DNA from: an uncultured Eubacteriales bacterium
GTDB lineage: Bacteria; Acidobacteriota; Aminicenantia; Aminicenantales; Saccharicenantaceae
NCBI GenBank assembly: GCA_964423315.1
Contig: CAYREO010000016.1
Coordinates: 1,513 to 65,512 of the forward strand
DNA length: 64,000 nucleotides
Reading direction: 5' to 3'
The notes under the pieces were generated by a model. It was not told the DNA's origin. It did no database searches and saw only the letters and a program-made list of their open reading frames with translations. The position numbers were made by a program, and so were the translations under genes. Shown here one piece after another: positions 5,978 to 53,846 of this stretch. Numbering within the stretch: position 1 is the stretch's first letter; each line of letters opens with the position of its first letter.

Positions 5978-6010
5978 ACCCGTCCTGCTCCGGCCACAGT
6001 CCCGGCACCC

Positions 6011-7045: not shown

Positions 7046-7138
7046 GCCCACCAAAAGATCCCTTCTCAGTCTGTTTTTGAGATTCGTCCGGGCTGTATAA
7101 CAAACTCATAAATTGTTGGTAATAATTCAAAAACATTC

Positions 7139-7167
7139 TTGACAACTCCCTATCAGGCGGATATGAT
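7139..7167 (+). promoter_or_regulatory. σ70-like promoter upstream of lipoprotein paralog A / KdgK / Eda operon, with ATATGATATATCGTAT motif
   Basis: TTGACA (7139-7144), N17, TATGAT (7162-7167). The motif ATATGATATATCGTAT lies at 7161-7176. RBS AAGGAGA precedes the ATG at 7249. Confidence 0.45.
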
Positions 7168-7248
7168 ATATCGTATAAGAAATATGTCCATTGCCTGCTA
7201 TGCTCGATTGACATCCACAGCGGGCGGAATTCATAAGGAGACTCTTCC

Positions 7249-8805: not shown

Positions 8806-8826
8806 TGGGGCCCCGGGAGCCCCACG

Positions 8827-9870: not shown

Positions 9871-9886
9871 AGGCTAAGGAACAAGC

Positions 9887-27230: not shown

Positions 27231-30200
27231 TCATCGGCTGTCGGCCGACCCGGCCTTTGCCGGGCCGCTCGGCTCGATTTCGTAGACATGGACGTCATAC
27301 TGGTGCCAGACATCCTTGATCACATCCCGTTCGACCCGCATCTCCCCAGGTACATCGAATAGCTTCCTGACCTTCATCCCCCCGAGACCGTTCAAAGCAA
27401 TCTCAGCTTCCGTCCCCGCATCCCCAACGAGCGCCGCAAGGAGGTAGAGCTTGCCTTCCCAAGTTTTGAGCCGTGTTTCGATCCGCCCCGAAACGGGCTC
27501 GACCCGGACCGGGATGTCCGAATCCCGGGCGGCCAGTATGGGCCACATGAAGTCCATCTCCTGGAACCAGCCGCGAAGCCTCTGGAGCTGATGCTTTTGG
27601 GTACAGACCCAATGATAAAGGCCGTTGGCCCCGTAGATCACGGCCAGATAGGATTCCGCCCGGAATCCGCGCCAGTCGTCCCCCCTCAAAGAGAGGTATC
27701 CCGGGTACTGCTCGGGAACGACTTCGTCGGCGTGAAAGCTGACATAGTAGTTGACCTCGGCCAGACGGAACCGGCCGGGATTGAGCACGGTCTCCGTCTT
27801 CGTCAGGAAAGGCGCGTTCCTCCAGGCCGATCCCGGGCGCCCCATGATCTTCACATAGCAGTATCCGACCGGCGGCCGGGGCCCGATGTCCCAGTCTGGA
27901 CCTTTACGGTCGTAAAGAAAGCTTGAATCATGATGACCCCAGATGACCAGCCTAGGAGAAGTCAAACCAGCGACGATCTCCTCGACCCGCCTCCGGTACC
28001 GAACGAGGTCATCCGTGAGCCTCCAGTAATAGAACTGCTTCCCATAGCAGCCGAGAAATCCGGGATGTACGAGCAGGCCTTCGGCCTCGGCGGCGAAGCG
28101 GTCGAGGATATCCGGATCTCCCGGATGAGGGGATCCCGGGCCGATGATGATCGAATAGGCGTTCAAGGCCCAGGCCTTGTCCCTGTCCTCCAACGAGGCG
28201 GCACCCTGATGATACTGGCCACGGTAGACGTTGGCCCCGAGACGGATGGCATCGTCCCATTCCATGACGTTGACCGAGGGCACGATAGGGAAGAAGCGGA
28301 CATTGCCGTTGAGGACCAAAAAGCCGTTCTCATCCAGTTCGACCTTCTGGATGGGAGGTAGAGGCCGTCTCTCGATCGGGCGGATGCGCCCGAACGGGAT
28401 CCGGGCCCGGCCGAGCTCCCGGCCCGTACGGTCACGGTAGGAGGCCACCATCTCGTAATCCTGGACCGGCAGAGGGTTGACACGCAGGTCAGAGATATCG
28501 AGAGGGATCTCAGTCAGGCTCTCCGAAATCGCTCTATCAAGGACCATTAGGACCTTGTCTTGGGTTCGGTCGCGCAGCTCCACACGGACCTTGCCTCCCG
28601 CGCCGAGCGGGCGCAGCCTAGCATGGATCTCTAGCCGGGCTTGTTCCTCCGGGAAATAGTGGTCCTGGTCGAGGACCGCTTCGATGGCCGGCGGGACGAT
28701 TAACGGATAATAACGGTCCAAAAGGGATCGTCCGCCCTCCTCGATGACCAGTTGGAAGCTGGACATCCTGCCCAGGCCGGCGTCATATTCCAGAGGGACC
28801 GCACAGCATTCTCCGGCTTCTATGTCGACCTGCCGCCTCACGGCCGGACCGTCGCTCATTCCCGCCCGTAAGGACAGGGAGCGCGGCCGGACGTCCTCAT
28901 TGACGAGAACGACCTCGGCCTGGTTCAGGCCAGCATAGATCTGGGGATGGGAGATGAAGTCCTGGGACTGGTCCGTCTCTTCGAAATAGCGCCTCCCGAA
29001 CCTGACGGATTTCACCCGGATCGAGGGGGGGCGGGCCAACTCGATGCGCCCCATCTCTCTACTGTTGGGCGCGCGGCCCGACCATAGGGTCTCCCGGCGA
29101 CCCGCCTTCCAGGCGATAGTGAAGCCAAATTCGTCCTGTCCTGGCCCTTCGAGGCCGAGCGCGGCGAACGGAACGCTGATCCTCCAGCCGGTGCCGGCTT
29201 CTTCTATCCGGACCCCCTTCTCGGCGGCCGGCGCGAAAAGTCCTTCCGAAGTGTAGCCCTGTTTTTCAACCACTGTCCCCAGGCTTCCCGATCCGTCCGC
29301 CGATATGCGGAGGACACTGAAAAGGAAACGCTCGTGATTCAGGAAATCGCTGCGGACCCTCGGATGAAGGTAGACGCGCATGTCGGTCTTCCCACGCTGG
29401 GGGATCCACAGAAAGAGATGGGTCGCATCGTTCTCCGCGCGGATCCCCTTCCGCGCGGCAAGCCGGGTCCCATCACCCCAGCTCGCGCTCAGGACCCGCG
29501 GGGGAATGGCCACTCCCCGCCGGATCAGCTCGGCCTCCGGTGTCGCCCACTCGAAAGCGCGTATGTCGTCGACCCACAACGTCGTGGTCGGCTCGCTCCC
29601 GAGGACGGTGATCCGGACCTCGATCTCCTCAACGGGCTTCAAGGGCAGGAATCCGAAACGAAAATCGGCCCAATCGTGATCGCTGACTCCCAGCGAGAAC
29701 GTCGGGGAGACCTCCTGCATGGTGCCGTCCGTGAAGAACACGAACACCGTCAGGTTGGCCAGGTTGTCGGGGCCCCAGTAGCCGGGTGGCGAGTTCCCGA
29801 CGGAGTTGTCGAGCTTGGATTTTGCGGACAGGACGATCGGGCGGAGAGATCGCTGGTTGATGCGGATCCTTTGCGAGATTCCCGATCCTTCCGTATAAAC
29901 CACGCTGGCGCGAAGGGATCGGCGCCCCGACGCGGACTCGCCGGTCTCGATCTCGGGGGGGCGGTAGGAGGCCCCGACCCAGCTGACCCACTGGTCCTCC
30001 GAGGGAACACCCCACTCCGGAAAAGGCGTGATCGCCGAAACTTCCTCGAAACCCGGGTTCCTGACCAGATTGACTCCTTCAATGTCCTGAAACAGCTCGA
30101 CATCGTCCACCCAGGCCGCCGCTTCCGGGGAACCCGCCGGCAGAAGGAAGGAGATCTCCGCTCCCCACTTCCAATCCGCCGAACGCAGGGACTCCCTGAC

Positions 30201-30698
30201 GATGGTCCAATCGGCGGCGGCCGGCAAGGTCAGTTCCTTAACTAGCGAGGGGCGATCACGGACCGCCCCGAGACGTATAACGGCGCGGAAAGGGCGGTCT
30301 CCCGTTATGCCCGCCGTCTTATACGCAAAAGTGATCTCGATGTCCTCACCCGGCACAATGGGAAGTCCGAACGGCATGCGGCCGTCCTTGACCGTCCAAA
30401 AGTCGGCCTGAAGGACTGCTTTGACCTCCTCCTCCCCTCCTGTCAAATGCACGCTCCGCTTCCCCGAGAATTGGTCTTCCTCCGTGACCCGGGCCCCAGT
30501 TGAGAGGGTCCAATAGGGAAGATAACCGCGGCCGTCGGGATGAATGACGGAGGAGTAGGACGGGAACTGCTCGATGTCATTGACCATGACGCTCTCGGCC
30601 CCGCCGTTGGGAAGGAGCGAAGGGCGATCAGCCCCAAGCGCTCCTCCGAACAGGGCTAGGGCCGCCACAATGGCCGCGACAGCGGACGCGGCCCTCAC
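27231..30698 (-). CDS. Large (1155 aa) secreted protein of unknown function
   Basis: Signal peptide MRAASAVAAIVAALALFGGALGA. No recognisable catalytic motif. Translationally coupled (4-bp overlap) to the upstream transglutaminase-like gene. Confidence 0.6.
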   Translation of the reverse strand: MRAASAVAAIVAALALFGGALGADRPSLLPNGGAESVMVNDIEQFPSYSSVIHPDGRGYLPYWTLSTGARVTEEDQFSGKRSVHLTGGEEEVKAVLQADFWTVKDGRMPFGLPIVPGEDIEITFAYKTAGITGDRPFRAVIRLGAVRDRPSLVKELTLPAAADWTIVRESLRSADWKWGAEISFLLPAGSPEAAAWVDDVELFQDIEGVNLVRNPGFEEVSAITPFPEWGVPSEDQWVSWVGASYRPPEIETGESASGRRSLRASVVYTEGSGISQRIRINQRSLRPIVLSAKSKLDNSVGNSPPGYWGPDNLANLTVFVFFTDGTMQEVSPTFSLGVSDHDWADFRFGFLPLKPVEEIEVRITVLGSEPTTTLWVDDIRAFEWATPEAELIRRGVAIPPRVLSASWGDGTRLAARKGIRAENDATHLFLWIPQRGKTDMRVYLHPRVRSDFLNHERFLFSVLRISADGSGSLGTVVEKQGYTSEGLFAPAAEKGVRIEEAGTGWRISVPFAALGLEGPGQDEFGFTIAWKAGRRETLWSGRAPNSREMGRIELARPPSIRVKSVRFGRRYFEETDQSQDFISHPQIYAGLNQAEVVLVNEDVRPRSLSLRAGMSDGPAVRRQVDIEAGECCAVPLEYDAGLGRMSSFQLVIEEGGRSLLDRYYPLIVPPAIEAVLDQDHYFPEEQARLEIHARLRPLGAGGKVRVELRDRTQDKVLMVLDRAISESLTEIPLDISDLRVNPLPVQDYEMVASYRDRTGRELGRARIPFGRIRPIERRPLPPIQKVELDENGFLVLNGNVRFFPIVPSVNVMEWDDAIRLGANVYRGQYHQGAASLEDRDKAWALNAYSIIIGPGSPHPGDPDILDRFAAEAEGLLVHPGFLGCYGKQFYYWRLTDDLVRYRRRVEEIVAGLTSPRLVIWGHHDSSFLYDRKGPDWDIGPRPPVGYCYVKIMGRPGSAWRNAPFLTKTETVLNPGRFRLAEVNYYVSFHADEVVPEQYPGYLSLRGDDWRGFRAESYLAVIYGANGLYHWVCTQKHQLQRLRGWFQEMDFMWPILAARDSDIPVRVEPVSGRIETRLKTWEGKLYLLAALVGDAGTEAEIALNGLGGMKVRKLFDVPGEMRVERDVIKDVWHQYDVHVYEIEPSGPAKAGSADSR

Positions 30699-32719
30699 TT
30701 CGCCTCCCCCTGGAAGGCCAAAGCTATGCGGCTGACGATGCCCTCCCTGCCGAATCGACTCACGGGCCGGGCCTCAAGGATGTTATCTCCCGGGGCCAGA
30801 CTCCAGGTGAAGGATGCCGCAGACGGTGTCCATTCCCCTCCATTGATGCGGACCTCGAAGGTCTTGAAGTTGGGCGTCACCGTATCGAGGTGGACATCGA
30901 GAAGGTTGGGCCGGTCGGTCGCCGTCAAGTGGATCTCCGCTTGATTGAGGGTCCAGGCGAAGTCCCGGGCGTGGGAGCTGTGGAACGTGTATTCCTCGTA
31001 GGCTGGCAGCGCCGAGTCTTTCCACCAGAGGTACCCGTCGTAATGGTATTGGATGAACCCATGTTCCAGTTCCCCAGGCATCCAGCTGGTCAGAAAATTG
31101 TTTCGCATCGGCATCCCGAAGCGGGATTTCCATTGCCGGGGACCGAGGACCCCTTGTTCGACGTCCTCGGCGCCCGGAAAGCGATCATGGGTACCGACAG
31201 GGACGATCCAGATCTCCTCCGTTCGCGAGGCTCGGGCCAACTCATGGATCTCCAGGGAATCCAGGGGTCTTCCCTCGTGCTTCTGGAAGGCCGCCCGCAG
31301 CGAGTTGGAGGTATTTCCTACATCGATGACGACCCATTTCTCGTGGTCGTTGGACCAGACCTCGGCCGTGAAATGATGGTCGAGGATGATGCCCCTCGCC
31401 TGAAGGCCGACGGCCAGGCAGGTCTGGACGAAGGTGTTGGCGTAGATCGTGCACATCCCGGACGCTTTGTACTGGGGGACCAGTTCGAGCGAGATAAGCG
31501 CGTCCCAAGGGGTATGGAGGGCGGCCTCTCCTTGCGGGCTCCATCCGTCCCGCCAAATGCCCTTGAGCCAAAAGGCCAGCGTCCGGTATTCCTGGAACTC
31601 CGTGGAACAGCCACCTACGACCTCGTTCAGCCGGAACCGTTCCCGGAGGACCTCGAGCCGGCTTTCGCCGGCATCTTGGAACGTATAGGGATAGTACCCG
31701 CGGACGATCCTTCGGTTCTCGCGATCGTCGGCGGCGAGCTTTCCTGGCTGGTGGACGAGGTCGATGTCCGCCGACAGGGACAGGGACCTGAGGACGGGCG
31801 TGCGGCCGTGGTGGGATGTCCGCAACTCCGCCTTCCATTGGACGTAACGCCACTCACTCAAGGTCTCCGAGGACACGCGAGCCGGATCGGTCCAAGCTCC
31901 CCAAGTGGCCGGGTCATAGGAGGGCGTCCGGCCGCCGCGGACCGCCGGGACGATCGACGTCCCGGCCGGCGTCGTGGCGTCCAACCTGAGAGCCAGCCGC
32001 CGCAGCCGGATCGCGGGTTTGACGGCCGTTGCCGCGATCAAGGAGGCCGCATCGATGAAGTCCGAGAGGATCTCGCCCTTTTCCGGATATCGTCCCAGCC
32101 GGAGACGGATGAGGTATTCGCCGTCGATGAACCCTTCGGTCCCCAGCCTGTCCCGATCCCAGGTCCGTCCCCCGTCGAGACTGCGGGCGCTGCGGTTGGG
32201 ATACCGCGAGGCCTCCAGGCTGAAATAGAAGTCGTACTCCGTCGTGTTGCGCAGGACGAAGCTGTTCAAACCGGGGCGAAGCCATTCGACGGGCACGTCG
32301 CAGCGGATCCAGCCGCCCGTCAACATGCGATCGTGATCGATGTCCAGGCGGAGCGGCCGGCCGTTGACCTCGACCCAGAGGAAGGCCCCTTTTTCCTTGA
32401 AGTCCTTGAGATCGTACCGGTTCCAATGGATGAGGAGGACGGCCGACTCGGCCTCGATTCGGTCGAGCTGGAACTCCTTGAGGATGCGGATGTCCCCCTT
32501 CAACATTTCATGCATGCGACCCGTGGTCACACCGGTTTCATCGGTGATCAGCTCGGTCTTGAGGAGACGGATCTCCCCGGGGACCGAGGTGGCGTCGATC
32601 CGCCAATCATAGAGGGTCGCATCCCAGTCCTCGGAGGTCGCAAAGGTCTTTCGGTAAGAAGCCCCGAAAGCCAGCGTCGCGGTAAGGAAAACAATAACAA
32701 AAAATACGGTTCTTTTCAT
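30695..32719 (-). CDS. Secreted transglutaminase-like cysteine-protease-fold protein with BNR/Asp-box motif (paralog 1)
   Basis: Start at MKRTVFFVIVFLTATLAFGAS (ATG 32719, AAGGAG RBS). BNR motif SLDGGRTWD. TGase core Cys-His-Asp: GMCTIYANTF ... HHFTAEVW ... KWVVIDVGN. Confidence 0.75.
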   Translation of the reverse strand: MKRTVFFVIVFLTATLAFGASYRKTFATSEDWDATLYDWRIDATSVPGEIRLLKTELITDETGVTTGRMHEMLKGDIRILKEFQLDRIEAESAVLLIHWNRYDLKDFKEKGAFLWVEVNGRPLRLDIDHDRMLTGGWIRCDVPVEWLRPGLNSFVLRNTTEYDFYFSLEASRYPNRSARSLDGGRTWDRDRLGTEGFIDGEYLIRLRLGRYPEKGEILSDFIDAASLIAATAVKPAIRLRRLALRLDATTPAGTSIVPAVRGGRTPSYDPATWGAWTDPARVSSETLSEWRYVQWKAELRTSHHGRTPVLRSLSLSADIDLVHQPGKLAADDRENRRIVRGYYPYTFQDAGESRLEVLRERFRLNEVVGGCSTEFQEYRTLAFWLKGIWRDGWSPQGEAALHTPWDALISLELVPQYKASGMCTIYANTFVQTCLAVGLQARGIILDHHFTAEVWSNDHEKWVVIDVGNTSNSLRAAFQKHEGRPLDSLEIHELARASRTEEIWIVPVGTHDRFPGAEDVEQGVLGPRQWKSRFGMPMRNNFLTSWMPGELEHGFIQYHYDGYLWWKDSALPAYEEYTFHSSHARDFAWTLNQAEIHLTATDRPNLLDVHLDTVTPNFKTFEVRINGGEWTPSAASFTWSLAPGDNILEARPVSRFGREGIVSRIALAFQGEAK

Positions 32720-32817
32720 GACAGACTCCTTCATTTGGGCGGAAAGGAGGATTGGAGACAAGCCTGTCTCCCTGGATTGGCCCTATCGAAAAGCTTGCTC
32801 AGCCCCATTAGGATATG

Positions 32818-32847
32818 ATAATATCCGATATCATATATTTTAATCAA
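32818..32847 (-). promoter_or_regulatory. σ70-like promoter for TGase-like paralog 1 operon (minus strand), overlapping an inverted repeat
   Basis: On the minus strand: TTGATT-N18-TATTAT. The inverted repeat ATATGATA-ATATCCGATAT-CATATAT (32813-32838) spans the spacer/-10 region. Confidence 0.4.
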
Positions 32848-32951: not shown

Positions 32952-34382
32952 ATGAGATTCCGCCGACTGCTAGGATGCCTGGCCTTGGCCGCCTTGGCGG
33001 CCGCATGGCCGGCATCCGGACAGGAAAAGTCCATTCTGGAGAAGGAAAATGAGCGGATGGCCCTCAACCGTAAATACGACCGGTACAATCTGAGGGCCAA
33101 GAGGGAGTTCACCGTCGAGCGTTCCGAAGCTTTCCTCAGAATCCCCAAGACGGAGTCCCCGAAAGGTGATTTCCTGAAGGCCCAGACGCCGCCGACGGTA
33201 AAGCTCATGATCCTCCCCGATCTCGAGCCCGAGTATTTCCTAGACATCAAGGACCCCGGGGACGCCTACATGTTTTCCTGGGCCAACTGGGCGTATGTCG
33301 TCCGCAGCGGTGACGGCCGTTTTTACCTCTCGGCCAGCAACCACCGGGGATTCGGGTGCCAAATCAACATCTACGAGTATGTCCCCGACCGCGACCTCCT
33401 GCACCGGGTCGTCGACGTGACCAAGCTCCTCGGCTGGACGCCTCAGAGCTACACCGACGGCAAGATCCACGGCAAGATGGGCCTTATGCCGGACGGGACG
33501 CTCTGGGCCGCCACCCACTACGGACCGCACCCGGACGATCGGTGGTTCGCCAACGGCTACCGAGGAAGCTGGCTGCTCAGCTACAATATCTTCACCCGCG
33601 AAGCCCGGAACTGGGGCATCCCCCTCGTCGGCAGCAACCTCGACAGCTTCCAGCTGGACGCCCGTCGGGGCCGCCTGGTCGGCACCGGTTCATTCAGTCA
33701 TATGGTCCTCTGCTACGACGTGATCAACAAGCAGGCCCGTTTCGCGGGCTACCCTCCCGGCGGATGGAAATGGGGATCCCGGACGCTTCTGCTGGACCAG
33801 GCCACCGGGAAATTTTGGTCGGTCGATTACGACGACGATAACGCCTTCTTCAGCTTCGATCCGGAGTTCAACAGCTTCCAGAAGTTCGACGTTCGCCCGC
33901 CGGTGAGCCCCCTGGACAACAAGCGGGGCATCCCCCGAGGACACACCGACCGCCCGGCGATGGACGGCTGGTACTACTGGGCGACCTGGAACGGCATTCT
34001 GTTCCGGTTCAAGCCGGAAACCCCCGAAGGGCCGCTGGTCGAAACCCTGACGCCGACATGGGACGAGGGGCGCGACGCCCTTCAGTTGGCCATGGAGCCC
34101 ACGGGTCGCTATATCTACTATTATCCGAAGGAGAACTCCCCCATCGTCCAATACGACGTCAAGACGGGCCGGCGCAAGGTCATCGCCTGGCTGCAGGATT
34201 ATTTTTTCGAGAAGTACGGCTATCTGATGGGCCAGGTCTACGGAATGGAGATTTCCGCTGATGGGTCGACCCTCGTCGTGGGGGTCAACGGGGCTTTCGA
34301 GGGACGGGACCAGGCCTTCGGCCACCCGGGTCTCCTGGTCGTCGAGATCCCGGCCTCCGAGAGGAAGGTGGAGGAAAAATGA
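32952..34382 (+). CDS. Secreted protein, member B of the 3-copy paralogous family (β-propeller-like, unknown function)
   Basis: Signal peptide MRFRRLLGCLALAALAAAWPASG. Shares blocks KIHGKMGLMPDGTLWAATHYGP, RRKVIAWLQDYFFEKYGY and LLVVEIPASER with paralogs A and C. Its stop overlaps the start of the next gene. Confidence 0.75.
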   Translation: MRFRRLLGCLALAALAAAWPASGQEKSILEKENERMALNRKYDRYNLRAKREFTVERSEAFLRIPKTESPKGDFLKAQTPPTVKLMILPDLEPEYFLDIKDPGDAYMFSWANWAYVVRSGDGRFYLSASNHRGFGCQINIYEYVPDRDLLHRVVDVTKLLGWTPQSYTDGKIHGKMGLMPDGTLWAATHYGPHPDDRWFANGYRGSWLLSYNIFTREARNWGIPLVGSNLDSFQLDARRGRLVGTGSFSHMVLCYDVINKQARFAGYPPGGWKWGSRTLLLDQATGKFWSVDYDDDNAFFSFDPEFNSFQKFDVRPPVSPLDNKRGIPRGHTDRPAMDGWYYWATWNGILFRFKPETPEGPLVETLTPTWDEGRDALQLAMEPTGRYIYYYPKENSPIVQYDVKTGRRKVIAWLQDYFFEKYGYLMGQVYGMEISADGSTLVVGVNGAFEGRDQAFGHPGLLVVEIPASERKVEEK

Positions 34383-36496
34383 GAAAGCTCGCCCTGCTTC
34401 TGGCCGTGACGGCCGTTCTGGGCCACGGCGCTCCGCCGGTCAAAGCGGCCAAGAACCTTGTATCGGTCTGGGAAAAAGGGGCCGCCGCGATCTACGAGAC
34501 CGGATTCGCGTCCGGCGTGATGAGGCTCGCCGACGGCGTCGGCCTGTTCAACATGGATCTCATAGAGAACGATGCCCCCGGCTCGGGGATCAGCGAGAAG
34601 GGAGCCAACACGGACATCATCTGGGAAGGATCCAGGGCCCGCAAGGTGCTTCGCCTCGAAGACCCGAGGGCCGTCCGGGCATGGATCGTGGTCTATGTCA
34701 TGAAGAAAGGCCCCCACCCGCTGACCTTCGCCGTCAACGGCCGCGAAAGCCGGATTCTGTCCTGGGACGATCAAGCCAATCACGAATGGTATAGATGGGC
34801 GGAGTTTCCAGTCTCATGGCTGGTCAAAGGGAACAACAATATCGACCTTTACTGCCCCGAGGCCTCATCGCCCGAAGAAGGATGGGAGATCCAGCTGGCG
34901 CGGGCCGACGAGTTCATCGACGGCGGGGGCGATCCCCGCCTGGCCGGCGAAACATCCTTCAAGTCCGCCGACGGCGGGCGCACTTGGAGGAAAAGCCCTT
35001 TCGGGCCAGACGAGAAGACCCGGGCCGAGTATACGGTGCGGCTGAGCCTGGACCGATACATCCCGTCGGGATGGCTGGCCTCCCCCGTCATCGACCTGTG
35101 GAAGGGTGGCGGCGATGAGGTCATCGTCCCGCTTCGGCGCCTCGAGCGTATGCGTCTGAGGGTCGCAGCCGACGCCCCTCGCGGAACTCAGGTCCGATAC
35201 TTCCTTCGAAAGGGAGACGAGCCCGGCCCCCAAGCCGACGGCTGGACGCCTTATGAGCCCGTCGGGGCGGGGCCGGTTTTGGACATGGCTCTGGAGGGGC
35301 ACGAGCTCAACCGCCGGTACATCCAGTTCAAGGCCGAGCTGTCGACGGCGGACCCGCTCATCACTCCACTCGTCAAGTCGGCCCGGGTGGAAGCGGAACT
35401 GACCCAGAACGTCCCCGATCCGGGGAACCTCTTCGTCGTGAGCGCCGATAATCCTCCCATCCAGTACTCCTCGCTCGACTGGGAATGGGAGAAAGACGAC
35501 CGGCCAGAGTTCGCGGCCCTCCGCCTCCAAGAGAACCTCGATGAAGTCGTCCAGGGGAGCCGGACGCCCTTCGAGGCCATGGTCAGACTCGGCGCCTACG
35601 TCGCCAAACGATGGCGCAACAGCAGCCCGTTGCCAGACTACCCCGGTTGGGGCGCATTGTCCATCTTCGATCGGATATCGAGGGCGGGGGGCGGGGGCAT
35701 GTGCATCCAACTCAACCTGGCCTTAGGCGGCGCCTGCATGGCCTATGGCTGGCAGGCCCGCCATGTCAACGTCATCGGGCACGAGGTCATCGAGGTCTGG
35801 AACGACGATCTCGGCAAGTGGGTCTTTTTCGACGCCGATTATCTCCAGCACTACAACGCGGACGCCCGGACAGGGGAGCCCATGAGCCTACTCGAGCTGC
35901 ATCGGATGTTCCTCGACTATTATTTCCCGGACCGGCCGATCGACTGGATGGCCGACCGCATGAGTTGGATGGCCCCCGAAGACGGCCGCCCCTTCCCTGT
36001 TCTGAGGGGCTCCTCCGTATACCTTCCCGACGCGGTCATGAGCGGCTTCATCAACGCCGCATTCCTGAGGATCATTCCCCGCAACAACTGGTATGAGAAA
36101 CCCACACCGCGGCCCCTCAACCACGGCCTCTCCCAGTGGCCGTGGGACGGGTATGTCAATTGGTACGATGACAGGACCCCTCCCAAGCGGCAGTACTCCC
36201 GGTTCACCGACCGGCCCCGGGACCTGTGGCCGGACCTCAATCGGGTCCGCATCGACGCAACGAGCGGGGCCGGCAACGACGTCCTCTTCCTCCACTTCGA
36301 GACCTACACTCCGAACTTTAGCCACTTCGAGGTCGACGTCGACGGCGCGGGGTGGGTCCGGACGGGAAGCCGCTGGACCTGGCACCTGCAGGCGGGCCGG
36401 AACACGCTCAGGGCCCGGGCGGTCAGTCGGATGGGGGTCGGAGGCAAGCCGGCGGTCCTTACCATCAACCATGTCAACCAGCCGTTCAGCCGCTAA
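34379..36496 (+). CDS. Secreted transglutaminase-like cysteine-protease-fold protein with BNR/Asp-box motif (paralog 2)
   Basis: Signal peptide MRKLALLLAVTAVLGHGAPPVKA. BNR motif SADGGRTWRKS. TGase core GGGMCIQLN ... GHEVIEVW ... KWVFFDADY. C-terminal TYTPNFSHFEV parallels TVTPNFKTFEV of paralog 1. Confidence 0.75.
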   Translation: MRKLALLLAVTAVLGHGAPPVKAAKNLVSVWEKGAAAIYETGFASGVMRLADGVGLFNMDLIENDAPGSGISEKGANTDIIWEGSRARKVLRLEDPRAVRAWIVVYVMKKGPHPLTFAVNGRESRILSWDDQANHEWYRWAEFPVSWLVKGNNNIDLYCPEASSPEEGWEIQLARADEFIDGGGDPRLAGETSFKSADGGRTWRKSPFGPDEKTRAEYTVRLSLDRYIPSGWLASPVIDLWKGGGDEVIVPLRRLERMRLRVAADAPRGTQVRYFLRKGDEPGPQADGWTPYEPVGAGPVLDMALEGHELNRRYIQFKAELSTADPLITPLVKSARVEAELTQNVPDPGNLFVVSADNPPIQYSSLDWEWEKDDRPEFAALRLQENLDEVVQGSRTPFEAMVRLGAYVAKRWRNSSPLPDYPGWGALSIFDRISRAGGGGMCIQLNLALGGACMAYGWQARHVNVIGHEVIEVWNDDLGKWVFFDADYLQHYNADARTGEPMSLLELHRMFLDYYFPDRPIDWMADRMSWMAPEDGRPFPVLRGSSVYLPDAVMSGFINAAFLRIIPRNNWYEKPTPRPLNHGLSQWPWDGYVNWYDDRTPPKRQYSRFTDRPRDLWPDLNRVRIDATSGAGNDVLFLHFETYTPNFSHFEVDVDGAGWVRTGSRWTWHLQAGRNTLRARAVSRMGVGGKPAVLTINHVNQPFSR

Positions 36497-36565: not shown

Positions 36566-39091
36566 TCACCTCAGATCGAGGAAATAGTCCCCGTTCTTGA
36601 GGTCCCAGGAGGGCGAGAAAAAGCCCATCGCCCTGGCGGCGGACCACCCGTACCCGGCCAGCTCCCGCCCGGCGACCACGAAGTCCGGGGTGCTCATCCT
36701 CTTGTCGATCGGCTGGATCCGGACGATGTCTTTTTCCATCCTCATCGTCGTCCCCGCGTAGATGGCCATCAGCCTCGAGGGGTTGAGAGGATTGGGATAG
36801 ACCATGGCCACACCCAGGTCCTTCTCCTCCAACGGCTGACCGTCGAAAATTACCGTGTCGCCCTCGATCCTCAGGGGGAGCTCGGCGGAGACCCGGGCCG
36901 TCATCGAGTTCCTCTCGGGAGACCCGAAGAGGATGAGGTTGAAATCCCGAAGCGTGGCGTCCTCGACATCTCGGTCGGCGACGATGCGGATGAAGCCGTT
37001 GGCCCAACGCCAGAACCTCCGGGCGTATATGCGGGCGTTGTTCAGAAGGGCCTCAGTCTCCTCGGGGCTTCCCTGGGTGCCGTAGACGAGAACGGCGGGC
37101 TTATAGAAAGCGTTCCGCAGAGGGCCCGACAGGTCCGGGGTCTTGCGCAACCCCGGCCCCGGATCGGGACCCAGGACGACTTTGCGGTTCGGTGGGATGG
37201 TCACCCGGCTCTCCCGGCCGTTCCAGTCCACAGAGACCTCCGAGCCCCGGATTAGGGCTTCCGGTAGATGGAGCTCCAAGCGCGAGACATTCTTGGTCTT
37301 CAAGAGGATGCTCCCTCCGCGGACCTCGGCTCGGATGGGCGTCAGATCGAAGGCCCGCTCCTGCTCGAGGACCCGGACCCAATAAAACGTATCGTTGACG
37401 CCGATGTCGATCATCCGGACGTCGAACTCTTCCGGGAATTCCAATCGCCGCTGCTTCTCCAGGAAGCCGATGACCTCGGGATGATCGATGCAGACCGCCC
37501 ATAGGCGTCCCTCCCCCTCGTCGATCCTGGGCTCGAACCAGAAATGGGGCCTTCCCGGGACTTCCAAATACCGGAACGGGATGCCGAGATCCCGCACCCG
37601 GGCCTGAAAGAGGCGAGGATTGATGGGATAGACGACGTTGTCGCTGCCCCCATGGATCATGTAGAGGGGTATGAGCCGCGCGTTCTCGGCGTAACCCAGG
37701 AGGTGCCGATCAAGGGACATCCGGGCCATCATCCCCCGGATGCCTGGCGCCGCATAAATGTGGCTTCGGCCGAGGTGGGGCGACGATAGGACCATCGGGG
37801 ACGCATAGGACGCTTCGGGCGCCGACGCCGCGAACTTCGAGGGGAACATCAGGGCGTGATAGAGGCTTCCGTGGCCCCCCATCGAGGCCCCGGTCAGGCA
37901 GACCCGGTCGAGATCGATCCTGTGCCGGTCAGCGACCTCATCCAGCACCTCATGAAGGTCGATCTGCCCCCAGGCGTGGTACTCGAGACCCCACGGCCGG
38001 CGGTCGGTCGTGGCCACTACGAAGGCCCAGTCCTTGTTGTCGTGGGCCTCGGCCATGATGAGGCCTTCGTCCCCCGAACCATGGAGGGAGAACAGTATCC
38101 CATAGGATTTCAGGGGATCGTAGTGGCGCGGATAGCGGATGGCGTAGTACTGGACCGAACCGTCGATCCGCGACAGGAATGTCACCTTGTGCGGCTGCCG
38201 CCGGTCCTTGGCCCGCAGGGACGCTTTGAAGAGCGTCAGGGTCCGTGGGCCGTCCTTGACGAGGATGGTCAGCTCGTGGCCGTCCGCTTCGGCGGGCAGC
38301 GCTTCGGCCTGAGACAACGGCAGGGGGACCTTCATGACCGATAACGGCGCCAGGGGCGGGACGGCTGATTCCGTCCTCCGGAACAAGCCGTCGCCCTCAA
38401 TGACCACCTTGAGACCCTTCTGCCACTTGTCTGTCGTGTTGACGATCGGGACGCCCATGTGCGATGACAACCGTTCGTCCCTCAGGATATCCGGCCGGGT
38501 GAGATCATCCAGGATCTGGACCGGCGACTCCGCCTTCCGTACAGAGCAGCTGAAGCTGGGATCCCCGGATCCGCGGAACTTGAGGAGGAGGCGGTTTTTG
38601 CCCGGGCGGAGGATTACCGGCACGCCGTTGTACCCGAAACCGTAGAATTCCCCGTCCATGCGCACTCCGTTGACCCAGAACGTCGGGACGCTCCTGGTGA
38701 AGACGAGGACGGCGGTCCTGTCCTTGACCTCCAGTTCGGCATGCGCATAGCCGACATTCATATAGCCTTCCGAGCGGCTGTCAGATCCATAGCGTTGGTG
38801 GAGAAAGGCCCAGTTCGTGTTCGGGTACTCAACCTTGACGTTCGGCCCGTCGGCCTTGAGTTCGAACCATCGGAGGACCCCCCCGTCCGGCTGGGGGGCG
38901 TAGAACACGTGGCCGGCGGACGGAACGATGGTCTCCTCCCCTCCGTGGGGAATCAGGAAATCGAGGTCCATCTCTTGGAGCCCGTCGAGGAACGGACCCA
39001 GGACCTGCCAACTTGTCACGGGGATCTCCGCCGCGGCAAGGCCGGCGGAAACCGCCAGACACAGGGCGAGAGCGATCGTCCATTTTTTCAT
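36566..39091 (-). CDS. Secreted α/β-hydrolase (S9 prolyl-oligopeptidase/esterase-like) with extra N- and C-terminal domains (tandem paralog 1)
   Basis: Start at MKKWTIALALCLAVSAGLAAA (ATG 39091, GGAGGG RBS). Nucleophile elbow LTGASMGGHG. Candidate Asp in HGGSDNVV and His in PGRPHFWF. Confidence 0.7.
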   Translation of the reverse strand: MKKWTIALALCLAVSAGLAAAEIPVTSWQVLGPFLDGLQEMDLDFLIPHGGEETIVPSAGHVFYAPQPDGGVLRWFELKADGPNVKVEYPNTNWAFLHQRYGSDSRSEGYMNVGYAHAELEVKDRTAVLVFTRSVPTFWVNGVRMDGEFYGFGYNGVPVILRPGKNRLLLKFRGSGDPSFSCSVRKAESPVQILDDLTRPDILRDERLSSHMGVPIVNTTDKWQKGLKVVIEGDGLFRRTESAVPPLAPLSVMKVPLPLSQAEALPAEADGHELTILVKDGPRTLTLFKASLRAKDRRQPHKVTFLSRIDGSVQYYAIRYPRHYDPLKSYGILFSLHGSGDEGLIMAEAHDNKDWAFVVATTDRRPWGLEYHAWGQIDLHEVLDEVADRHRIDLDRVCLTGASMGGHGSLYHALMFPSKFAASAPEASYASPMVLSSPHLGRSHIYAAPGIRGMMARMSLDRHLLGYAENARLIPLYMIHGGSDNVVYPINPRLFQARVRDLGIPFRYLEVPGRPHFWFEPRIDEGEGRLWAVCIDHPEVIGFLEKQRRLEFPEEFDVRMIDIGVNDTFYWVRVLEQERAFDLTPIRAEVRGGSILLKTKNVSRLELHLPEALIRGSEVSVDWNGRESRVTIPPNRKVVLGPDPGPGLRKTPDLSGPLRNAFYKPAVLVYGTQGSPEETEALLNNARIYARRFWRWANGFIRIVADRDVEDATLRDFNLILFGSPERNSMTARVSAELPLRIEGDTVIFDGQPLEEKDLGVAMVYPNPLNPSRLMAIYAGTTMRMEKDIVRIQPIDKRMSTPDFVVAGRELAGYGWSAARAMGFFSPSWDLKNGDYFLDLR

Positions 39092-39128
39092 GATGCCCTC
39101 CTGCTTATGGGATGCTCGTCGAAGGCCC

Positions 39129-41669
39129 TCAGTCCTCGGGCTCATCCTCATCGAGGAAATAATCCCGATTCCCAAGATCCCAGGACGGAGAGAAGAAGCC
39201 CGCTGCCCGGACGCCCGCCCACCCCCACCTGTGGATTTCTTTGCCGGCGACCAGGAAGTCTGGCAGTGAAAAATTCCTGAAGATTGGGAGGACCTTAACA
39301 GCAGCCTTCTCCATCTCGAGGCTCGTCCCCGCATAGACCGCCGCCAGCCTCTCCGGGTTGAGCGGGTTGGGATAGACCATCGCGATCATGAGGTCCGTTC
39401 CGGACAAGACCCGTCCGCCGAAAACGACCCTGTCCCCTTCGACCCGGATGGGAAGGCCCGCTGCGATGCGGGCCGTCACCGAGTTCCTCGCTGACGACCC
39501 GAAGAGGATCACGTTGAAATCGCGGATCACGGCCTCGTCAACCTCCTTGTCGGGGATGATGCGGGTGAATCCGTTGGCCCAGCGCCAGAACCGCTTGGCG
39601 AAATAGCGGGCATTGTCGAGGAGGGCTTCGGTCTCGCCGGGGGTTCCGGCCGTCCCGTAGACCAGCACGAACGGCCGGAAGAAAACGTTCTTGAGGGGCC
39701 CGTGAAGCGCGGAGGTCTTCTTGAGCGGGCCAGGCGATCCGTCACCGACGACGAGTCGCCGCGACGCAGGAATGCGGAACGGCTGCGTTCGTCCGTTCCA
39801 ATCGACGGTCACGGTGTCGGCGGCGATCAGTTCCGTCGGCAGATGGATCTCCATCTGTCGGATGTTGGTCGATGTGATCTCAAGACGGCCGTCGCCGAGG
39901 GAGGCTTCGACGCGGCTCGGGAAGAAAGACCTGAACTGCTCCTTAACGGTGATCCAATAATACGTGTCGTTGACCGAGAGATCGATGAGCCGAAAACGGA
40001 TCTCCCGGGGGAGCTTGACTCGCCTATTTTTCTCGAGGAAGGCCATGATCTCAGGGTGGTCGATACAGACACCCCAGAGCGGACCTTGGCCTTCCTCGGT
40101 TCTCGGCTCGAACCAGAAATGGGGCTTGCCCGGGAACTCGCGATAAACGACGGGATAGCCCAGGTCCCTAAGGCCGGAGACCATCAAACGGGCATGGATG
40201 GGGGGCACAACGTCATCGGCCCCTCCGTGTGTCACCATAAGGGGGAGATGAAGGGCATTTTCCAAGAAGTATGGGAGATGGGTGTCAAGGTAGAGCCGGT
40301 CGATAAGAGCCTTGACTCCTGGGTGACCGAAAACGACCCCCTTTTGCAAATGGAAGGGTGAGTAGATCTGCCGGGAGGAGTAGCCGGCCTCCGGGGCCAC
40401 GGCCGCGAAAAGATGGGGAAAAATCAACCCGTTGTACCAGGCCCCCTGGCCGCCCATGGAAGCGCCCGTCAGGATGACGCGGTCGGGATCAACGACGTAG
40501 CGGGCCTTCATCCGGGCGATGGATTCAAAGAGATCGATCCGCCCCAGGTCGTGCCAGGCGAACCCCCTTGGCCGCCGGTTGGTCGGTGCCGCCACGAAGG
40601 CCCAGTCCTTAGGATCGTGGGCCTCAGCCATGATCTGTCCCTCGTCCCCTCCCCCGTGAAGCGACATGATGAGCCCATAGCTTCGTCCCGGGTCGAACCG
40701 CCGGGGAAGGCGAACGGCGTAGTACTGGGCCGACCCGTCCGCCTCCGAAACAAAGGTCTCGCGGAAGGGCTGGTCAAGGGTTTGGACTCTCAAGGAGACA
40801 TCCCGATTTGCGAGGACCCGGTCTCCCTGAAGAATTTTGACCTTAAGGGTATGCTTCTTAGCCGCCTCGGGCACATCGGCCTTTTGCGAGAACGGGACGG
40901 GCACCTTCATGACCGAGAGCGGAGCCATAGGCGGCACAGAACAGATGCTCTCGGAGAACACGCCGTCGGAGGCGACGACGGCTTTAAGCCCCCGAAGCCA
41001 GTCATCAGTGGTATTGGCGAGGGGCAGTCCCATCACGCCATCTTTGAGGGGGTATCCGCGGACCAAGTCGGGGGTCGTCAGATCCTCCAGGATATGAATG
41101 TCGGAATCCACAGGGCGGATGACGCATGAGAAGGACGCGTCACCTTGGGAGTGATACTTGAGAAGCAACCGGTTCCTGCCGGCCCGGAAAGTGACTGGTG
41201 TGGCGTTGTGGACGTGGGTATAGAATTCTCCGTCCTGGCGGACACCGTTGACCCAGAACGTATGGGCAGATTTCACAAGGATTATGGCTCTGGTCTTCTT
41301 TTCGAATATCAGCTCGGCATAGGCGTAGCCGCTGTTGGTCAGTTCAGCCGCATCCCGCCCGAAGAGCTTCTCAAGGAACGGCCAATCCGTCGCCGGATAC
41401 CGGACTTGAACATCGGGACCCGTCGCCGGGAGATCGAACCATCGCAGAACCCCGCCGTTGGATTGGACAGAAGAGAAGATCTGATCCGGTGAAGGAACGA
41501 TGGCTTCCTCTCCTCCATGGTCAAGGAGGTAATCAACGTCGAAGTCCCTGGGCCCAGAAAGGAAAGGCCCGATCGCCTGCCACTGTTTGACGATGATGTC
41601 CTCGGCTAAAGCCAGGCCGGCGGAGAACAAGCACGAAACCGCGATGATCAAGACCCGGTGATTAAACAC
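39129..41669 (-). CDS. Secreted α/β-hydrolase (S9/esterase-like), tandem paralog 2
   Basis: GTG start with AGGAGA RBS; signal peptide (M)FNHRVLIIAVSCLFSAGLALA. LTGASMGGQG elbow, HGGADDVV, PGKPHFWF. Collinear similarity with paralog 1 throughout (for example SFSCSVRKAESPVQILDDL vs SFSCVIRPVDSDIHILEDL). Confidence 0.7.
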   Translation of the reverse strand: MFNHRVLIIAVSCLFSAGLALAEDIIVKQWQAIGPFLSGPRDFDVDYLLDHGGEEAIVPSPDQIFSSVQSNGGVLRWFDLPATGPDVQVRYPATDWPFLEKLFGRDAAELTNSGYAYAELIFEKKTRAIILVKSAHTFWVNGVRQDGEFYTHVHNATPVTFRAGRNRLLLKYHSQGDASFSCVIRPVDSDIHILEDLTTPDLVRGYPLKDGVMGLPLANTTDDWLRGLKAVVASDGVFSESICSVPPMAPLSVMKVPVPFSQKADVPEAAKKHTLKVKILQGDRVLANRDVSLRVQTLDQPFRETFVSEADGSAQYYAVRLPRRFDPGRSYGLIMSLHGGGDEGQIMAEAHDPKDWAFVAAPTNRRPRGFAWHDLGRIDLFESIARMKARYVVDPDRVILTGASMGGQGAWYNGLIFPHLFAAVAPEAGYSSRQIYSPFHLQKGVVFGHPGVKALIDRLYLDTHLPYFLENALHLPLMVTHGGADDVVPPIHARLMVSGLRDLGYPVVYREFPGKPHFWFEPRTEEGQGPLWGVCIDHPEIMAFLEKNRRVKLPREIRFRLIDLSVNDTYYWITVKEQFRSFFPSRVEASLGDGRLEITSTNIRQMEIHLPTELIAADTVTVDWNGRTQPFRIPASRRLVVGDGSPGPLKKTSALHGPLKNVFFRPFVLVYGTAGTPGETEALLDNARYFAKRFWRWANGFTRIIPDKEVDEAVIRDFNVILFGSSARNSVTARIAAGLPIRVEGDRVVFGGRVLSGTDLMIAMVYPNPLNPERLAAVYAGTSLEMEKAAVKVLPIFRNFSLPDFLVAGKEIHRWGWAGVRAAGFFSPSWDLGNRDYFLDEDEPED

Positions 41670-41925: not shown

Positions 41926-43185
41926 ATGAGGAAGGGTTATCTCTCGGGAGCATCGTCCGCCACCCACCCTTCTCTGTTATCCACCCTCTCATCCAATCTG
42001 CCTGCGGCGGCAGATCTCCTTATCGACCTCATCGCCATCCCTTCGACCCGGGGCCGTGAGAGCGAGGTCGGACGTGTCCTGCAGCAAAGATTGACAGGAC
42101 TGGGAAAGATCGAACTCGTTCCTATCCCCTCCTCCCTGATGAAAGACCCTGACTTTTCCTTCCGGGAATCGGCCCCTTCTTATGAAGGCACGTTCAATCT
42201 CCGAGTAACCTTGGGCGGAGGAGATGGCCGGTCGTTAGCACTGAACACCCATATGGACGTCGTACCGCCCTCCGAGGGTCAGGAATCTCCCTTTGCCGCC
42301 GTAGAGGCCGAGGGCAGGATCTATGGCCGGGGAGCGGTCGACGCCAAGGGGCAGATCGTCGTCCTCTGGCTCCTCCTCAAGACTCTCCACGATCTCCGGC
42401 TCAATCCCCTAGGGCGAGTAACCATGGACTTCGTCATCGAGGAGGAATGCGGCGGCAACGGCACTCTTGCCGTCATCCGGAACGGCATCGAGGCCGATGC
42501 GGCGATCGTTCTGGAGCCAACGGATCTCCAAGTGGTCCACCTGGTCCGCGGCGCCGTCTGGTTCACGGTCGAGGCCCACGGAAAAGCCGGCCACAGCGGC
42601 AGCCCGGGATCGACATCGAGCGCCCTGAAAAAGGCCATCCGGGCGATGCAGGCCCTGGAGGCCGTGCGGGAGAAGCTCTTGGCCGTTTCTCGAGAGGAAC
42701 TCCCTTCGCTCTCTGAACACCCGAATCCCATGCCCTGCAATTTCGGCATCCTTCATTCGGGGGAATGGCCAGCGACGGCGCCCTCGAAGGCCCTGCTGAA
42801 AGGCGTTTTCGGTTTTCTCCCGCCGTTCCGGCGAGAAGAGATCCAGAACGAATTGAGGGGCGCCCTGAAGGATCTGACGGCCGAGATCCGTTTCGACATG
42901 CTGAACAACGATCCCTCCGTCCTATCTGAGGACCACCCGTTAGTACAAGGCCTCCTGGCCGCGGCCCGGCTTGCTGGGATCGTCGCCCGGCCAGCGTTCA
43001 TGAATGCCTCGTGCGATGCCTGGCGCTATTCGGTCCAGCAGGGCATCCCGACCGTCGTATTCGGCCCCGGCTCGCTCGCGCATGCTCATTCCGCGGACGA
43101 GCATATCGTCATGGCCGATATCATGAAGGCCGCCGAGGCCCTGATGAACTTCATTGACCTGTGGTGCGGATGGACCCATGACTGA
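41926..43185 (+). CDS. M20-family metallopeptidase / deacylase (ArgE/DapE/CPG2-like)
   Basis: LNTHMDVVPP (metal-binding His-x-Asp), GRGAVDAKGQ (Asp/Lys block), VIEEECGGNG (Glu-Glu metal ligands) and SADEHI at the C-terminus. Confidence 0.8.
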   Translation: MRKGYLSGASSATHPSLLSTLSSNLPAAADLLIDLIAIPSTRGRESEVGRVLQQRLTGLGKIELVPIPSSLMKDPDFSFRESAPSYEGTFNLRVTLGGGDGRSLALNTHMDVVPPSEGQESPFAAVEAEGRIYGRGAVDAKGQIVVLWLLLKTLHDLRLNPLGRVTMDFVIEEECGGNGTLAVIRNGIEADAAIVLEPTDLQVVHLVRGAVWFTVEAHGKAGHSGSPGSTSSALKKAIRAMQALEAVREKLLAVSREELPSLSEHPNPMPCNFGILHSGEWPATAPSKALLKGVFGFLPPFRREEIQNELRGALKDLTAEIRFDMLNNDPSVLSEDHPLVQGLLAAARLAGIVARPAFMNASCDAWRYSVQQGIPTVVFGPGSLAHAHSADEHIVMADIMKAAEALMNFIDLWCGWTHD

Positions 43186-44230
43186 AACAATGCAAGCTTT
43201 AGTGAAAACGGCCCGCGGACCCGGTCTCGTCGAACTACGGGAGGTTCCCGTCCCCCACGTCGGGGACACCGATGTCCTCATTGAGGTCAAGGCCGCCGGG
43301 ATCTGCGGCACGGACCTCCACATCTTCCACGACCGGTTCCCCTACTGGCCCCCCGTCATCTTGGGCCATGAATTCGCCGGGGTCATTGCCGAGTGCGGCC
43401 GAGACGTCGAGGGCTGGGAGCCAGGCGACCGGGTCGTCGGGGAGCCCCACACCCTGGCCTGCGGGCGCTGCCGGCTCTGCCGAACGGGATATCGACAGCT
43501 CTGCCCCGACAAGCGGTCGCCGGGATGGGGCATAGACGGCTGTTTCGCCCGCTACATGCGATTCCCGGAGCCGGCCCTGCTCCATGCCATCCCCGAAGCT
43601 CTCTCTTTTGAGGAAGCGGCCTTGGTCGAGCCGGCCGCCAACGCCGTCCATCATGTCCTTGAGAGGGGCCGTGTGGACACGGCCGACACCGTCGTCGTCA
43701 TCGGGCCCGGCCCGGTCGGGCTCCTGTGCGCCATGGCGGCTAAGGCGGGCGGCGCGGGGACCGTAGTCGTGGTCGGGACTGAGGTCGACGAGGCGATTCG
43801 CCTCGCGGCGGCCCGGCGCCTGGCGGCCGTCGATCTGGTTCTGAACGCCAACCGCGACAATGTCCCCCAAACGGTCGGCGAGCTGACCGGGGGCCGGGGG
43901 GCCGATCTCGTGGTCGAAGCAAGCGGCTCCGCGCCAGGGATCGCTTCGGCCTTCGCTCTTGTGCGCAAGCTCGGCCGGATCACGGCCATTGGCTTCACGG
44001 GACGGGAGACCGTGCCGTTCCCCTACGACGCGGGGCTCTATAAGGCCGCCACCCTGGTCTTTAATATGTCCACCTCCTACACTTCCTGGGATAAAGCCAT
44101 TCACCTGATGGCGGCGAGGAAGATAGAGGCGGTCTCTTTGATCACTCACAAGGGCGGCCTCGAGAGATGGGAAGAGTTCTTCCGGGCGCTGGAAGAGAAA
44201 GACGGCCTCAAGGGCCTGTTCCTCCCATAG
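43178..44230 (+). CDS. Zinc-dependent alcohol/polyol dehydrogenase (MDR family; sorbitol/threonine-DH-like)
   Basis: MQALVKTARGPGLVELREVPVP. Catalytic Zn site GICGTDLHI. Structural Zn Cys cluster CGRCRLCRTGYRQLC. Rossmann VVIGPGPVGLL. Start overlaps the M20 stop (ATGACTGA). Confidence 0.8.
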   Translation: MTETMQALVKTARGPGLVELREVPVPHVGDTDVLIEVKAAGICGTDLHIFHDRFPYWPPVILGHEFAGVIAECGRDVEGWEPGDRVVGEPHTLACGRCRLCRTGYRQLCPDKRSPGWGIDGCFARYMRFPEPALLHAIPEALSFEEAALVEPAANAVHHVLERGRVDTADTVVVIGPGPVGLLCAMAAKAGGAGTVVVVGTEVDEAIRLAAARRLAAVDLVLNANRDNVPQTVGELTGGRGADLVVEASGSAPGIASAFALVRKLGRITAIGFTGRETVPFPYDAGLYKAATLVFNMSTSYTSWDKAIHLMAARKIEAVSLITHKGGLERWEEFFRALEEKDGLKGLFLP

Positions 44231-44265
44231 AACAACCCTGACAACGACCGGGAGAGGAGCGCAAT

Positions 44266-45609: not shown

Positions 45610-45648
45610 GCTTGGGCCGGGCGATGGCCCGGGAGCAAGGAGGTCATT

Positions 45649-53811: not shown

Positions 53812-53846
53812 GCCCGGCACGATCATCCCATTTGTTGGAGGTCACC

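Follow-up and report, generated by a model that had tools for sequence, protein, structure and literature searches.

Three paralogous genes in one window

We analysed a stretch of 64,000 nucleotides, here called the window, from an uncultured bacterium of the Aminicenantales (assembly GCA_964423315.1, contig CAYREO010000016.1). The window carries three related genes, A, B, and C, for probably secreted proteins of about 500 amino acids (Table 1). A sequence-only reading had described them as collinear paralogs with a propeller-like body, and all three open reading frames (ORFs) that it named are present. In BLASTP comparisons, A and B share 31% identity (E = 1e-67) and B and C share 38% (E = 1e-93), far past the limit of E > 0.01 at which the reading would have given up the paralogy. 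In a three-way alignment the proteins are collinear throughout, and the shared blocks quoted earlier all fall within invariant columns (KIHG, DG.LW, GRYIY, R(R)KV[IL]A[FW]L...E.YGY, and an IP..ER tail). A search of the six-frame translation of the window with the family profile found exactly three copies. The description of a three-member family thus holds for the window, but overall the family comprises at least 1,085 clusters at 50% identity.

The export signals claimed for the three proteins are visible as hydrophobic N-terminal segments, with the lipoprotein motif IITAC in A. By the same crude heuristic, which is not a dedicated signal-peptide predictor, 95 of 118 B-type and 85 of 116 A-type homologs have a hydrophobic N-terminus, and about 50 of the 116 A-type homologs have a lipobox-like motif.

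Table 1. Features of the window discussed in the text. Positions are counted from the first nucleotide of the window.
Feature	Position	Strand	Description
Operon around A	5273..11805	+	Pfam: GntR/FCD regulator, 2-hydroxyacid dehydrogenase, A, PfkB kinase of the 2-keto-3-deoxygluconate (KDG) type, 2-keto-3-deoxy-6-phosphogluconate (KDPG)-type aldolase, class III aminotransferase
Paralog A	7249..8805	+	518 amino acids (aa), probable lipoprotein (IITAC, Cys21), A-type subfamily; ORF present
ORF adjoining the 688-aa gene	27231..30698	-	1,155 aa; no Pfam or NCBIfam match
Transglutaminase (TGase)-fold paralog	30695..32761	-	688 aa, divergent from B; orthologs directly upstream of A-type propellers elsewhere
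Paralog B	32952..34382	+	476 aa: signal peptide, N-terminal extension, propeller
Domain layout of B			Helix/strand N-terminal extension, residues ~25-105; predicted seven-bladed beta-propeller, residues ~82-472
Span with near-invariant polar residues of B	33342..34289	+	Putative top-face pocket, from conservation in 88 representatives
Polar residues of B	H131 33342, K171 33462, H173 33468, R277 33780, R329 33936, Y389/Y390 34116, Q400 34149, N446 34287		
TGase-fold partner	34379..36496	+	705 aa, translationally coupled to B; Cys442/His468/Asp485; several beta-sandwich domains
Tandem S9-like paralogs	36566..39334, 39129..41669	-	~850-920 aa, S9 peptidase/esterase-like domains, downstream of the B/TGase pair
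Cytoplasmic gene set	41926..46677	+	M20 peptidase, Zn-dependent alcohol dehydrogenase, Nramp transporter, GFO/IDH/MocA oxidoreductase
ORF downstream of this set	46709..48478	+	No Pfam match
Ceramidase-like ORF	50596..51960	-	Weak ceramidase-like N-terminus
Laminin_G_3/CARDB giant	53676..57500	+	1,274 aa, Pfam; two genes upstream of C
CBM9 + formylglycine-generating enzyme (FGE)-sulfatase-fold protein	57504..59633	+	709 aa, Pfam; translationally coupled to C
Paralog C	59630..61051	+	473 aa, signal-peptide-like N-terminus; ORF present
ORF directly downstream of C	61076..63352	+	758 aa; strong DUF5703_N match (E = 4e-62), no NCBIfam name

A large family with old subfamilies

How far does this family extend beyond the window? 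A profile search of 1.84 billion cluster representatives found 1,085 clusters at E ≤ 1e-3, 556 at E ≤ 1e-10, and 174 at E ≤ 1e-30, and the first of these counts is a lower bound for family size. Homologs come from Latescibacterota, Aminicenantes, KSB1, Hydrogenedentes, Lentisphaerota, Planctomycetota, Armatimonadota, and Omnitrophota, and further ones from Brocadiaceae and from metagenome-assembled genomes (MAGs) labelled 'PVC group'. Those that carry a name are all called 'hypothetical'. Some genomes have several copies, and one Latescibacterota MAG has seven loci.

A has at least 270 homologs. Orthologs in other phyla reach 59-79% identity for the A-type and 43-86% for the B-type, whereas A and B share only ~31%. 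This difference indicates that the A/B duplication is old or that the genes have spread by transfer. C has relatives in a subfamily of its own, at 84% (P0511) and 65% (P0241) identity. From these comparisons, A, B, and C represent old paralogous subfamilies rather than a recent lineage-specific expansion. The sequence-only reading had proposed such an expansion; we rejected it on the phyletic spread, with A-type and B-type orthologs each present in several phyla, and on the ortholog-versus-paralog identities.

A predicted seven-bladed propeller outside known families

An AlphaFold2 model of B, built with a 93-sequence alignment as input, has a mean predicted local distance difference test score (pLDDT) of 95.3 and a predicted template modelling score (pTM) of 0.92. 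With the N-terminal strand 82-87 taken to complete the last blade, the strands of the model fit seven blades of four strands each. The fold of the family is accordingly modelled as a seven-bladed beta-propeller, at the upper end of the six to seven blades first suggested from the translations.

The propeller body does not place the family among known ones. A, B, and C gave no match to Pfam-A or NCBIfam at E ≤ 1, and none of the three reached the curated hidden Markov model (HMM) threshold of a named propeller family (WD40, Kelch, PQQ, NHL, YVTN/Lactonase, SGL, PD40, Str_synth, or BNR). Among 93 family members scanned against Pfam at E ≤ 1, only sporadic sub-threshold noise appeared, and no propeller family was matched in more than five of them. 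Profile searches of all PDB sequences at E ≤ 10 returned noise and the 'Cake' designer propellers, the latter matching over one 23-residue blade segment only. Literature searches found no paper describing the propeller family. Because the Pfam, NCBIfam, and PDB searches all ended without a family match, we rejected assignment to a known family, and the earlier statement that no known family claims these proteins stands.

The family also differs from the propellers that its model most resembles. YncE (3vgz), Lp49 (3bws), and YVTN-type propellers share only 12-13% identity with it and give no Pfam or HMM match. Compared with these proteins, the A/B/C family has ~100 extra N-terminal residues, long top loops, and a polar set of its own. 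The known functions of YncE and Lp49, DNA binding or antigen, are no guide to that of the family.

A conserved polar site

We measured conservation on 88 near-full-length representatives that are 23-44% identical to B (median 29%); residue numbers are those of B. The most conserved positions are H173 (99%), Y389 (99%), K171 (98%), R277 (94%), R329 (93%), and W113 (93%), followed by N446 (91%), H131 (90%), Q400 (89%), Y390 (89%), and W110 (85%). No acidic residue in this set of representatives is as conserved as the basic ones. The best, D256 (84%) and E470 (83%), occupy turn or tail positions. No Cys is found among the positions conserved at 80% or more. With no comparable acidic cluster, a metal-dependent lactonase or a two-carboxylate glycosidase of the classical kind is disfavoured.

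Where do these residues sit on the propeller? We assigned faces from the DSSP string of the B model and the standard topology of propellers, whose top face consists of the D-A and B-C loops, and not from coordinates. H131 comes after strand B of blade 1, and strand A of blade 2 starts with K171 and H173. R277 stands ahead of strand A in blade 4, and R329 is at the start of strand A in blade 5. Y389 and Y390 are at the end of strand B in blade 6, as is N446 in blade 7. The top loops reach 20 residues, while the bottom turns (A-B and C-D) are mostly of 4-5 residues. Long top loops with short bottom turns are customary in propeller enzymes. On this topology, the conserved polar residues probably lie on the top face, clustered in one pocket.

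Nine polar residues (H131, K171, H173, R277, R329, Y389, Y390, Q400, and N446) are kept in every fusion architecture that we checked, including TGase, FG-GAP/ASPIC, S9-hydrolase, pectate-lyase-fold, and dockerin fusions and the split and circularly permuted forms. Since the same residues are kept whatever the partner, their retention argues for one fixed chemistry or ligand and not for adaptation of the site to different enzymes. By itself, this invariance is compatible with either an enzyme or a binder.

Most family members are encoded by stand-alone genes, and no neighbour is constant among them. Long members are mostly fusions with FG-GAP/FG-GAP_3 and UnbV_ASPIC, and other fusion partners include Transglut_core, a pectate-lyase-fold domain, an S9/DUF2920 alpha/beta-hydrolase, dockerin, F5/8 type C, Big_7, and fn3. 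In five FG-GAP/UnbV_ASPIC fusions from outside the window (P0285, P0318, P0306, P0332, and P0310), the propeller is split and circularly permuted. The order along the chain is the part corresponding to B ~229-472, the FG-GAP/ASPIC region, and the part corresponding to B ~100-220, with all conserved site residues present.

Transglutaminase-fold partners

B sits between two paralogous TGase-fold genes of ~700 codons. Their products, of 688 and 705 aa, share 29% identity (E = 1e-49), and C442, H468, and D485 are invariant in a 50-sequence alignment that includes both. Their Transglut_core (PF01841) scores of 19.4 and 19.6 bits are just below the Pfam cutoff of 23, and about half of the listed TGase-like homologs have a precomputed PF01841 match and the NCBI name 'transglutaminase-like domain-containing'. 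By their papain-like core, Cys-His-Asp triad, and relation to PF01841, both partners belong to the transglutaminase-like superfamily. In the AlphaFold2 model of the 705-aa protein (pLDDT 90.1), beta-sandwich domains surround a helical and beta core. Eukaryotic peptide:N-glycanase (PNGase) combines a transglutaminase core with the PAW sugar-binding domain. The TGase core and glycan-binding-like beta-sandwich of the 705-aa partner recall this layout, but the likeness is only a lead, with a sequence match to PNGase at E = 0.73 only.

Several observations tie the propeller to these proteins. As the sequence-only reading had noted, B is translationally coupled to the 705-aa gene, and the CBM9/FGE gene to C, in both cases by an ATGA overlap preceded by GGAGGA. 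TGase-like homologs adjoin propeller genes at six further loci (L006, L008, L014, L017, L029, and L043) and lie within 7 kb at another (L034). Four proteins of ~775 aa (P0042, P0071, P0076, and P0080) have an N-terminal TGase core followed by a B-type propeller. The 1,096-aa P0382 joins a full-length homolog of the 705-aa protein (27% identity over residues 88-700, E = 4e-41) to a C-terminal propeller. Adjacency kept in other phyla and natural fusions thus bear out the functional link that had been proposed between B and its TGase-like neighbour. We rejected an obligatory propeller/TGase pair: no propeller occurs within 6 kb of two TGase-like homologs, and a TGase-like gene is missing from most B-type loci. 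The genes beside the propeller-free homologs are a heparinase II/III-like gene and a GH106 gene. Linkage of propeller and TGase-like genes is common, and fusions strengthen it, but it is not obligatory.

Gene neighbourhoods

Our neighbourhood data come from roughly 40 loci; the genome scan used a B-type alignment, and its 33 loci are biased toward B-type. The operon around A has a PfkB kinase and a homolog of the PF01081 aldolase, which upholds the Entner-Doudoroff context read earlier from the sequence. The same gene order, including a PF01081 aldolase, is found around a 77%-identical relative (L007). No TGase or LamG gene stands beside A in the window.

The sequence-only reading had given each copy a different partner, but this difference is superficial. 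In Aminicenantales, KSB1, and other MAGs, a contiguous operon on one strand holds, in this order, an ortholog of the 688-aa TGase-fold gene (56-57% identity), an A-type propeller, and an ortholog of the LamG/CARDB giant (58-60%). The TGase-type orthologs are found in L006 and L043, while L044 and L045 have only the propeller and LamG gene of the three; L004 also shows LamG/CARDB synteny. The window genome appears to have scattered an ancestral three-gene unit of this composition. Moreover, a close relative (L008 and L009) has a homolog of the CBM9/FGE gene (L008 1241..3307) directly upstream of its B ortholog, whereas in the window this gene precedes C. The CBM9/FGE protein is secreted, and its NCBIfam similarities, to EgtB, SenA, and PorK/GldK, are sub-threshold only, which makes it unlikely to be a true FGE.

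Other recurrent neighbours are DUF4838/GH2_N proteins, Pec_lyase homologs, and a ceramidase-like family, and fucosidase-like, GH2, and type IX secretion system (T9SS)-tailed proteins also occur. DUF4838 is discussed in a paper on a new family of 6-sulfo-GlcNAcases (PMC10570127). In a Pfam census of 99 flanking ORFs, no family accounted for more than four, and we rejected a single dominant neighbour family on this count.

Some genes of the window have relatives near propellers elsewhere. Homologs of the ceramidase-like ORF lie directly beside B-type propellers in L028, L032, and L035, and homologs of the ORF at 46709..48478 lie near propeller genes in L029 and L034. The S9-like array is conserved in the close relative as three copies (L008 7695..14773). 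Homologs of the cytoplasmic gene set, Nramp excepted, are directly upstream of the A-type propeller in L045 (1..7911), together with 2-hydroxyacid dehydrogenase and aminotransferase homologs. The L045 set and its A-type gene hint at a shared route of amino-sugar or sugar-acid catabolism.

The window has a G+C content of 61.9%, and long spurious ORFs overlap real genes in it, for example, at 30890..32818 (+), 59575..60939 (+), and 7270..8034 (-). These are antisense ORFs or lie in another frame of the same strand, as expected at 62% G+C. At related loci, such ORFs can be longer than the propeller gene itself and gave a false 'neighbour family' in clustering. Neighbour cluster 2 was discarded because it consisted of antisense ORFs of the propeller gene in GC-rich genomes.

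What might the pocket do?

We tentatively favour the possibility that the A/B/C family is a metal-independent, lyase-like enzyme acting on an anionic glycan. The D-A and B-C top loops would form one asymmetric pocket at the central axis. Its lining, to which all blades but one of the seven contribute, would be made of two His, two Arg, two Tyr, and one each of Lys, Asn, and Gln, with Trp/Tyr platforms. From the basic and aromatic residue types, the lack of an acidic cluster, and the sugar-acid and sulfated-glycan neighbourhoods, we infer that this pocket binds an anionic sugar group, either a uronate carboxylate or a sulfate ester. It would perform metal-independent general-base chemistry on this sugar, most likely beta-elimination as in propeller polysaccharide lyases (PLs), which yield 4,5-unsaturated uronates, with His/Tyr as base and acid and Arg as charge neutraliser. 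The setting would be extracellular, in glycan- or glycoconjugate-degrading loci. Frequent co-actors, possibly in a physical complex, would be the 700-aa TGase-fold Cys-His-Asp hydrolase with its glycan-binding-like beta-sandwiches and the LamG/CARDB giant, and the products of A would feed the KDG kinase/KDPG aldolase route.

The nearest working analogy for such a site may be the metal-independent propeller lyases. In PL24, PL25, and PL42, the site occupies a central cleft of the anterior face in a seven-bladed propeller and combines a His (or Tyr) base/acid with a neighbouring His, a Tyr, and an Arg that neutralises charge, with no catalytic metal (PMC8377490). Like the A/B/C family, PL24 (LOR_107), PL25 (PLSV_3936), PL42 (FoRham1), and the related glycoside hydrolase (GH) family GH145 are secreted seven-bladed propellers, and their uronate-utilisation context resembles that of A beside a KDG-type kinase and an aldolase. 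The A/B/C family differs in adding an invariant Lys-x-His motif, an Asn, and a Gln.

Several points weigh against a lyase-like enzyme. In Pfam, NCBIfam, and PDB searches, the family resembled no PL, GH, or other enzyme family in sequence. Profile searches of the PDB at E ≤ 10 found no homology to PL22, PL24, PL25, PL42, PL11, or GH145, and no Pfam PL family matched; membership in PL24, PL25, and PL42 is therefore excluded by sequence. Nor do PL24, PL25, PL42, or GH145 appear in the top 50-60 structural matches to the B model, which are non-specific and have non-enzymes (YncE, Lp49, and WD40 proteins) among the best. The conserved His residues are 42 residues apart, in blades 1 and 2, versus ~20 in PL24/PL25/PL42, so the site is not a copy of theirs, and its clustering into a pocket follows from strand topology and not from distances measured on coordinates. 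The gene context is also uneven. The link between A and the KDG kinase and aldolase is confined to the window and the close relative and is absent from more distant A-type loci, B-type neighbourhoods are heterogeneous, and the two propeller-free TGase-like homologs were chosen independently and lie on Mb-scale contigs.

Could the propeller instead be a non-catalytic subunit? In this serious if somewhat doubtful rival to the enzyme, the propeller would recognise one fixed glycan or peptide epitope and present it to, or position, the TGase-fold hydrolase or the LamG/CARDB protein. The Rosetta-stone fusions and the adjacency involve a protein that holds a complete Cys-His-Asp triad of its own, which suits a binding role for the propeller, as does fusion to many different catalytic-looking modules. 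The top structural neighbours are binders, and the lack of similarity to a known enzyme family also fits. However, a near-invariant His/Lys/Arg/Tyr/Asn set spread over six blades at 23-44% identity is more typical of a catalytic site, and lectin propellers usually repeat one site per blade. A dedicated subunit also fits poorly with the many stand-alone members and their inconstant neighbours, or with A, which belongs to a catabolic operon with no adjoining TGase or LamG gene. Moreover, some family members bear carbohydrate-binding modules (CBMs) of their own (F5/8 type C) and a dockerin, and such modules are usual on catalytic modules.

A basic His/Arg/Lys/Tyr pocket could also support other chemistry on an anionic group, which we consider unlikely. 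The protein might be a sulfo- or phospho-ester transferase or hydrolase with a His nucleophile, a depsipeptide or ester lyase like virginiamycin B lyase (Vgb), or a metal enzyme with two His and Tyr as ligands. A sulfatase gene, FGE-fold proteins, and DUF4838 in the window or beside homologs would suit action on sulfated substrates. For a His nucleophile, the comparison is with the propeller arylsulfate sulfotransferases, but we found no Pfam match to arylsulfotransferase, SGL, PhoX-like, or Kelch oxidase families. Vgb (2z2n) is only 9% identical and stands within a flat list of generic structural matches. It is a cytoplasmic, Mg-dependent enzyme with acidic ligands, whereas the A/B/C family has no conserved acidic cluster. 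The same lack of conserved acidic metal ligands separates the family from SMP-30/gluconolactonase-type enzymes with their acidic/Asn ligands, and SGL was detected in one fusion only, at E = 6e-4, below the cutoff. Kelch-type copper radical oxidases combine two His and two Tyr with a Cys-Tyr crosslink, but the family has no conserved Cys for such a cofactor, and its Kelch matches are sporadic and sub-threshold.

Finally, it is very improbable that the propeller is a structural or adhesive component of a surface layer or matrix that the TGase-fold partner assembles or cross-links, with no part in nutrient acquisition: TGase-fold, LamG/CARDB, and FG-GAP/ASPIC adhesion-type partners and the many lipoprotein-like A-type members are compatible with this role, but the neighbours are mostly catabolic (kinase, aldolase, dehydrogenases, GH-like and lyase-like proteins, and peptidases), genomes have many paralogs in different degradative loci, and a purely structural part would not need so conserved a polar pocket.

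A larger proposal can also be framed, although we regard it as unlikely. The propellers would be a new class of extracellular carbohydrate-active enzymes (CAZymes), for example, a PL family with a K-x-H/His/Arg/Tyr site. They would work within a conserved three-part secreted machine, composed of a PNGase-like TGase-fold amidase, the propeller, and the LamG/CARDB giant, that dismantles acidic or sulfated glycoconjugates in uncultured Latescibacterota, Aminicenantes, KSB1, Lentisphaerota, and Planctomycetota.

Implications

Why does this family matter? As a sequence family it is new and of some size, with a candidate site and defined partners, but its fold is very common and the biology is not categorically new. 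Nevertheless, it is large and present in several copies in some genomes, with no Pfam or NCBIfam assignment and no name other than 'hypothetical protein'. It is concentrated in candidate phyla known mainly from genomes, which are regarded as degraders of complex polymers from algae and detritus. Should the pocket prove catalytic, a new enzyme class and a recurrent partnership with TGase-fold hydrolases would be added to the repertoire for turnover of glycans or glycoproteins in sediments. If it is not, the family would be a receptor module that is secreted and widespread. In both cases, the residues for mutation and the partners for co-expression are defined, and the question is directly testable.

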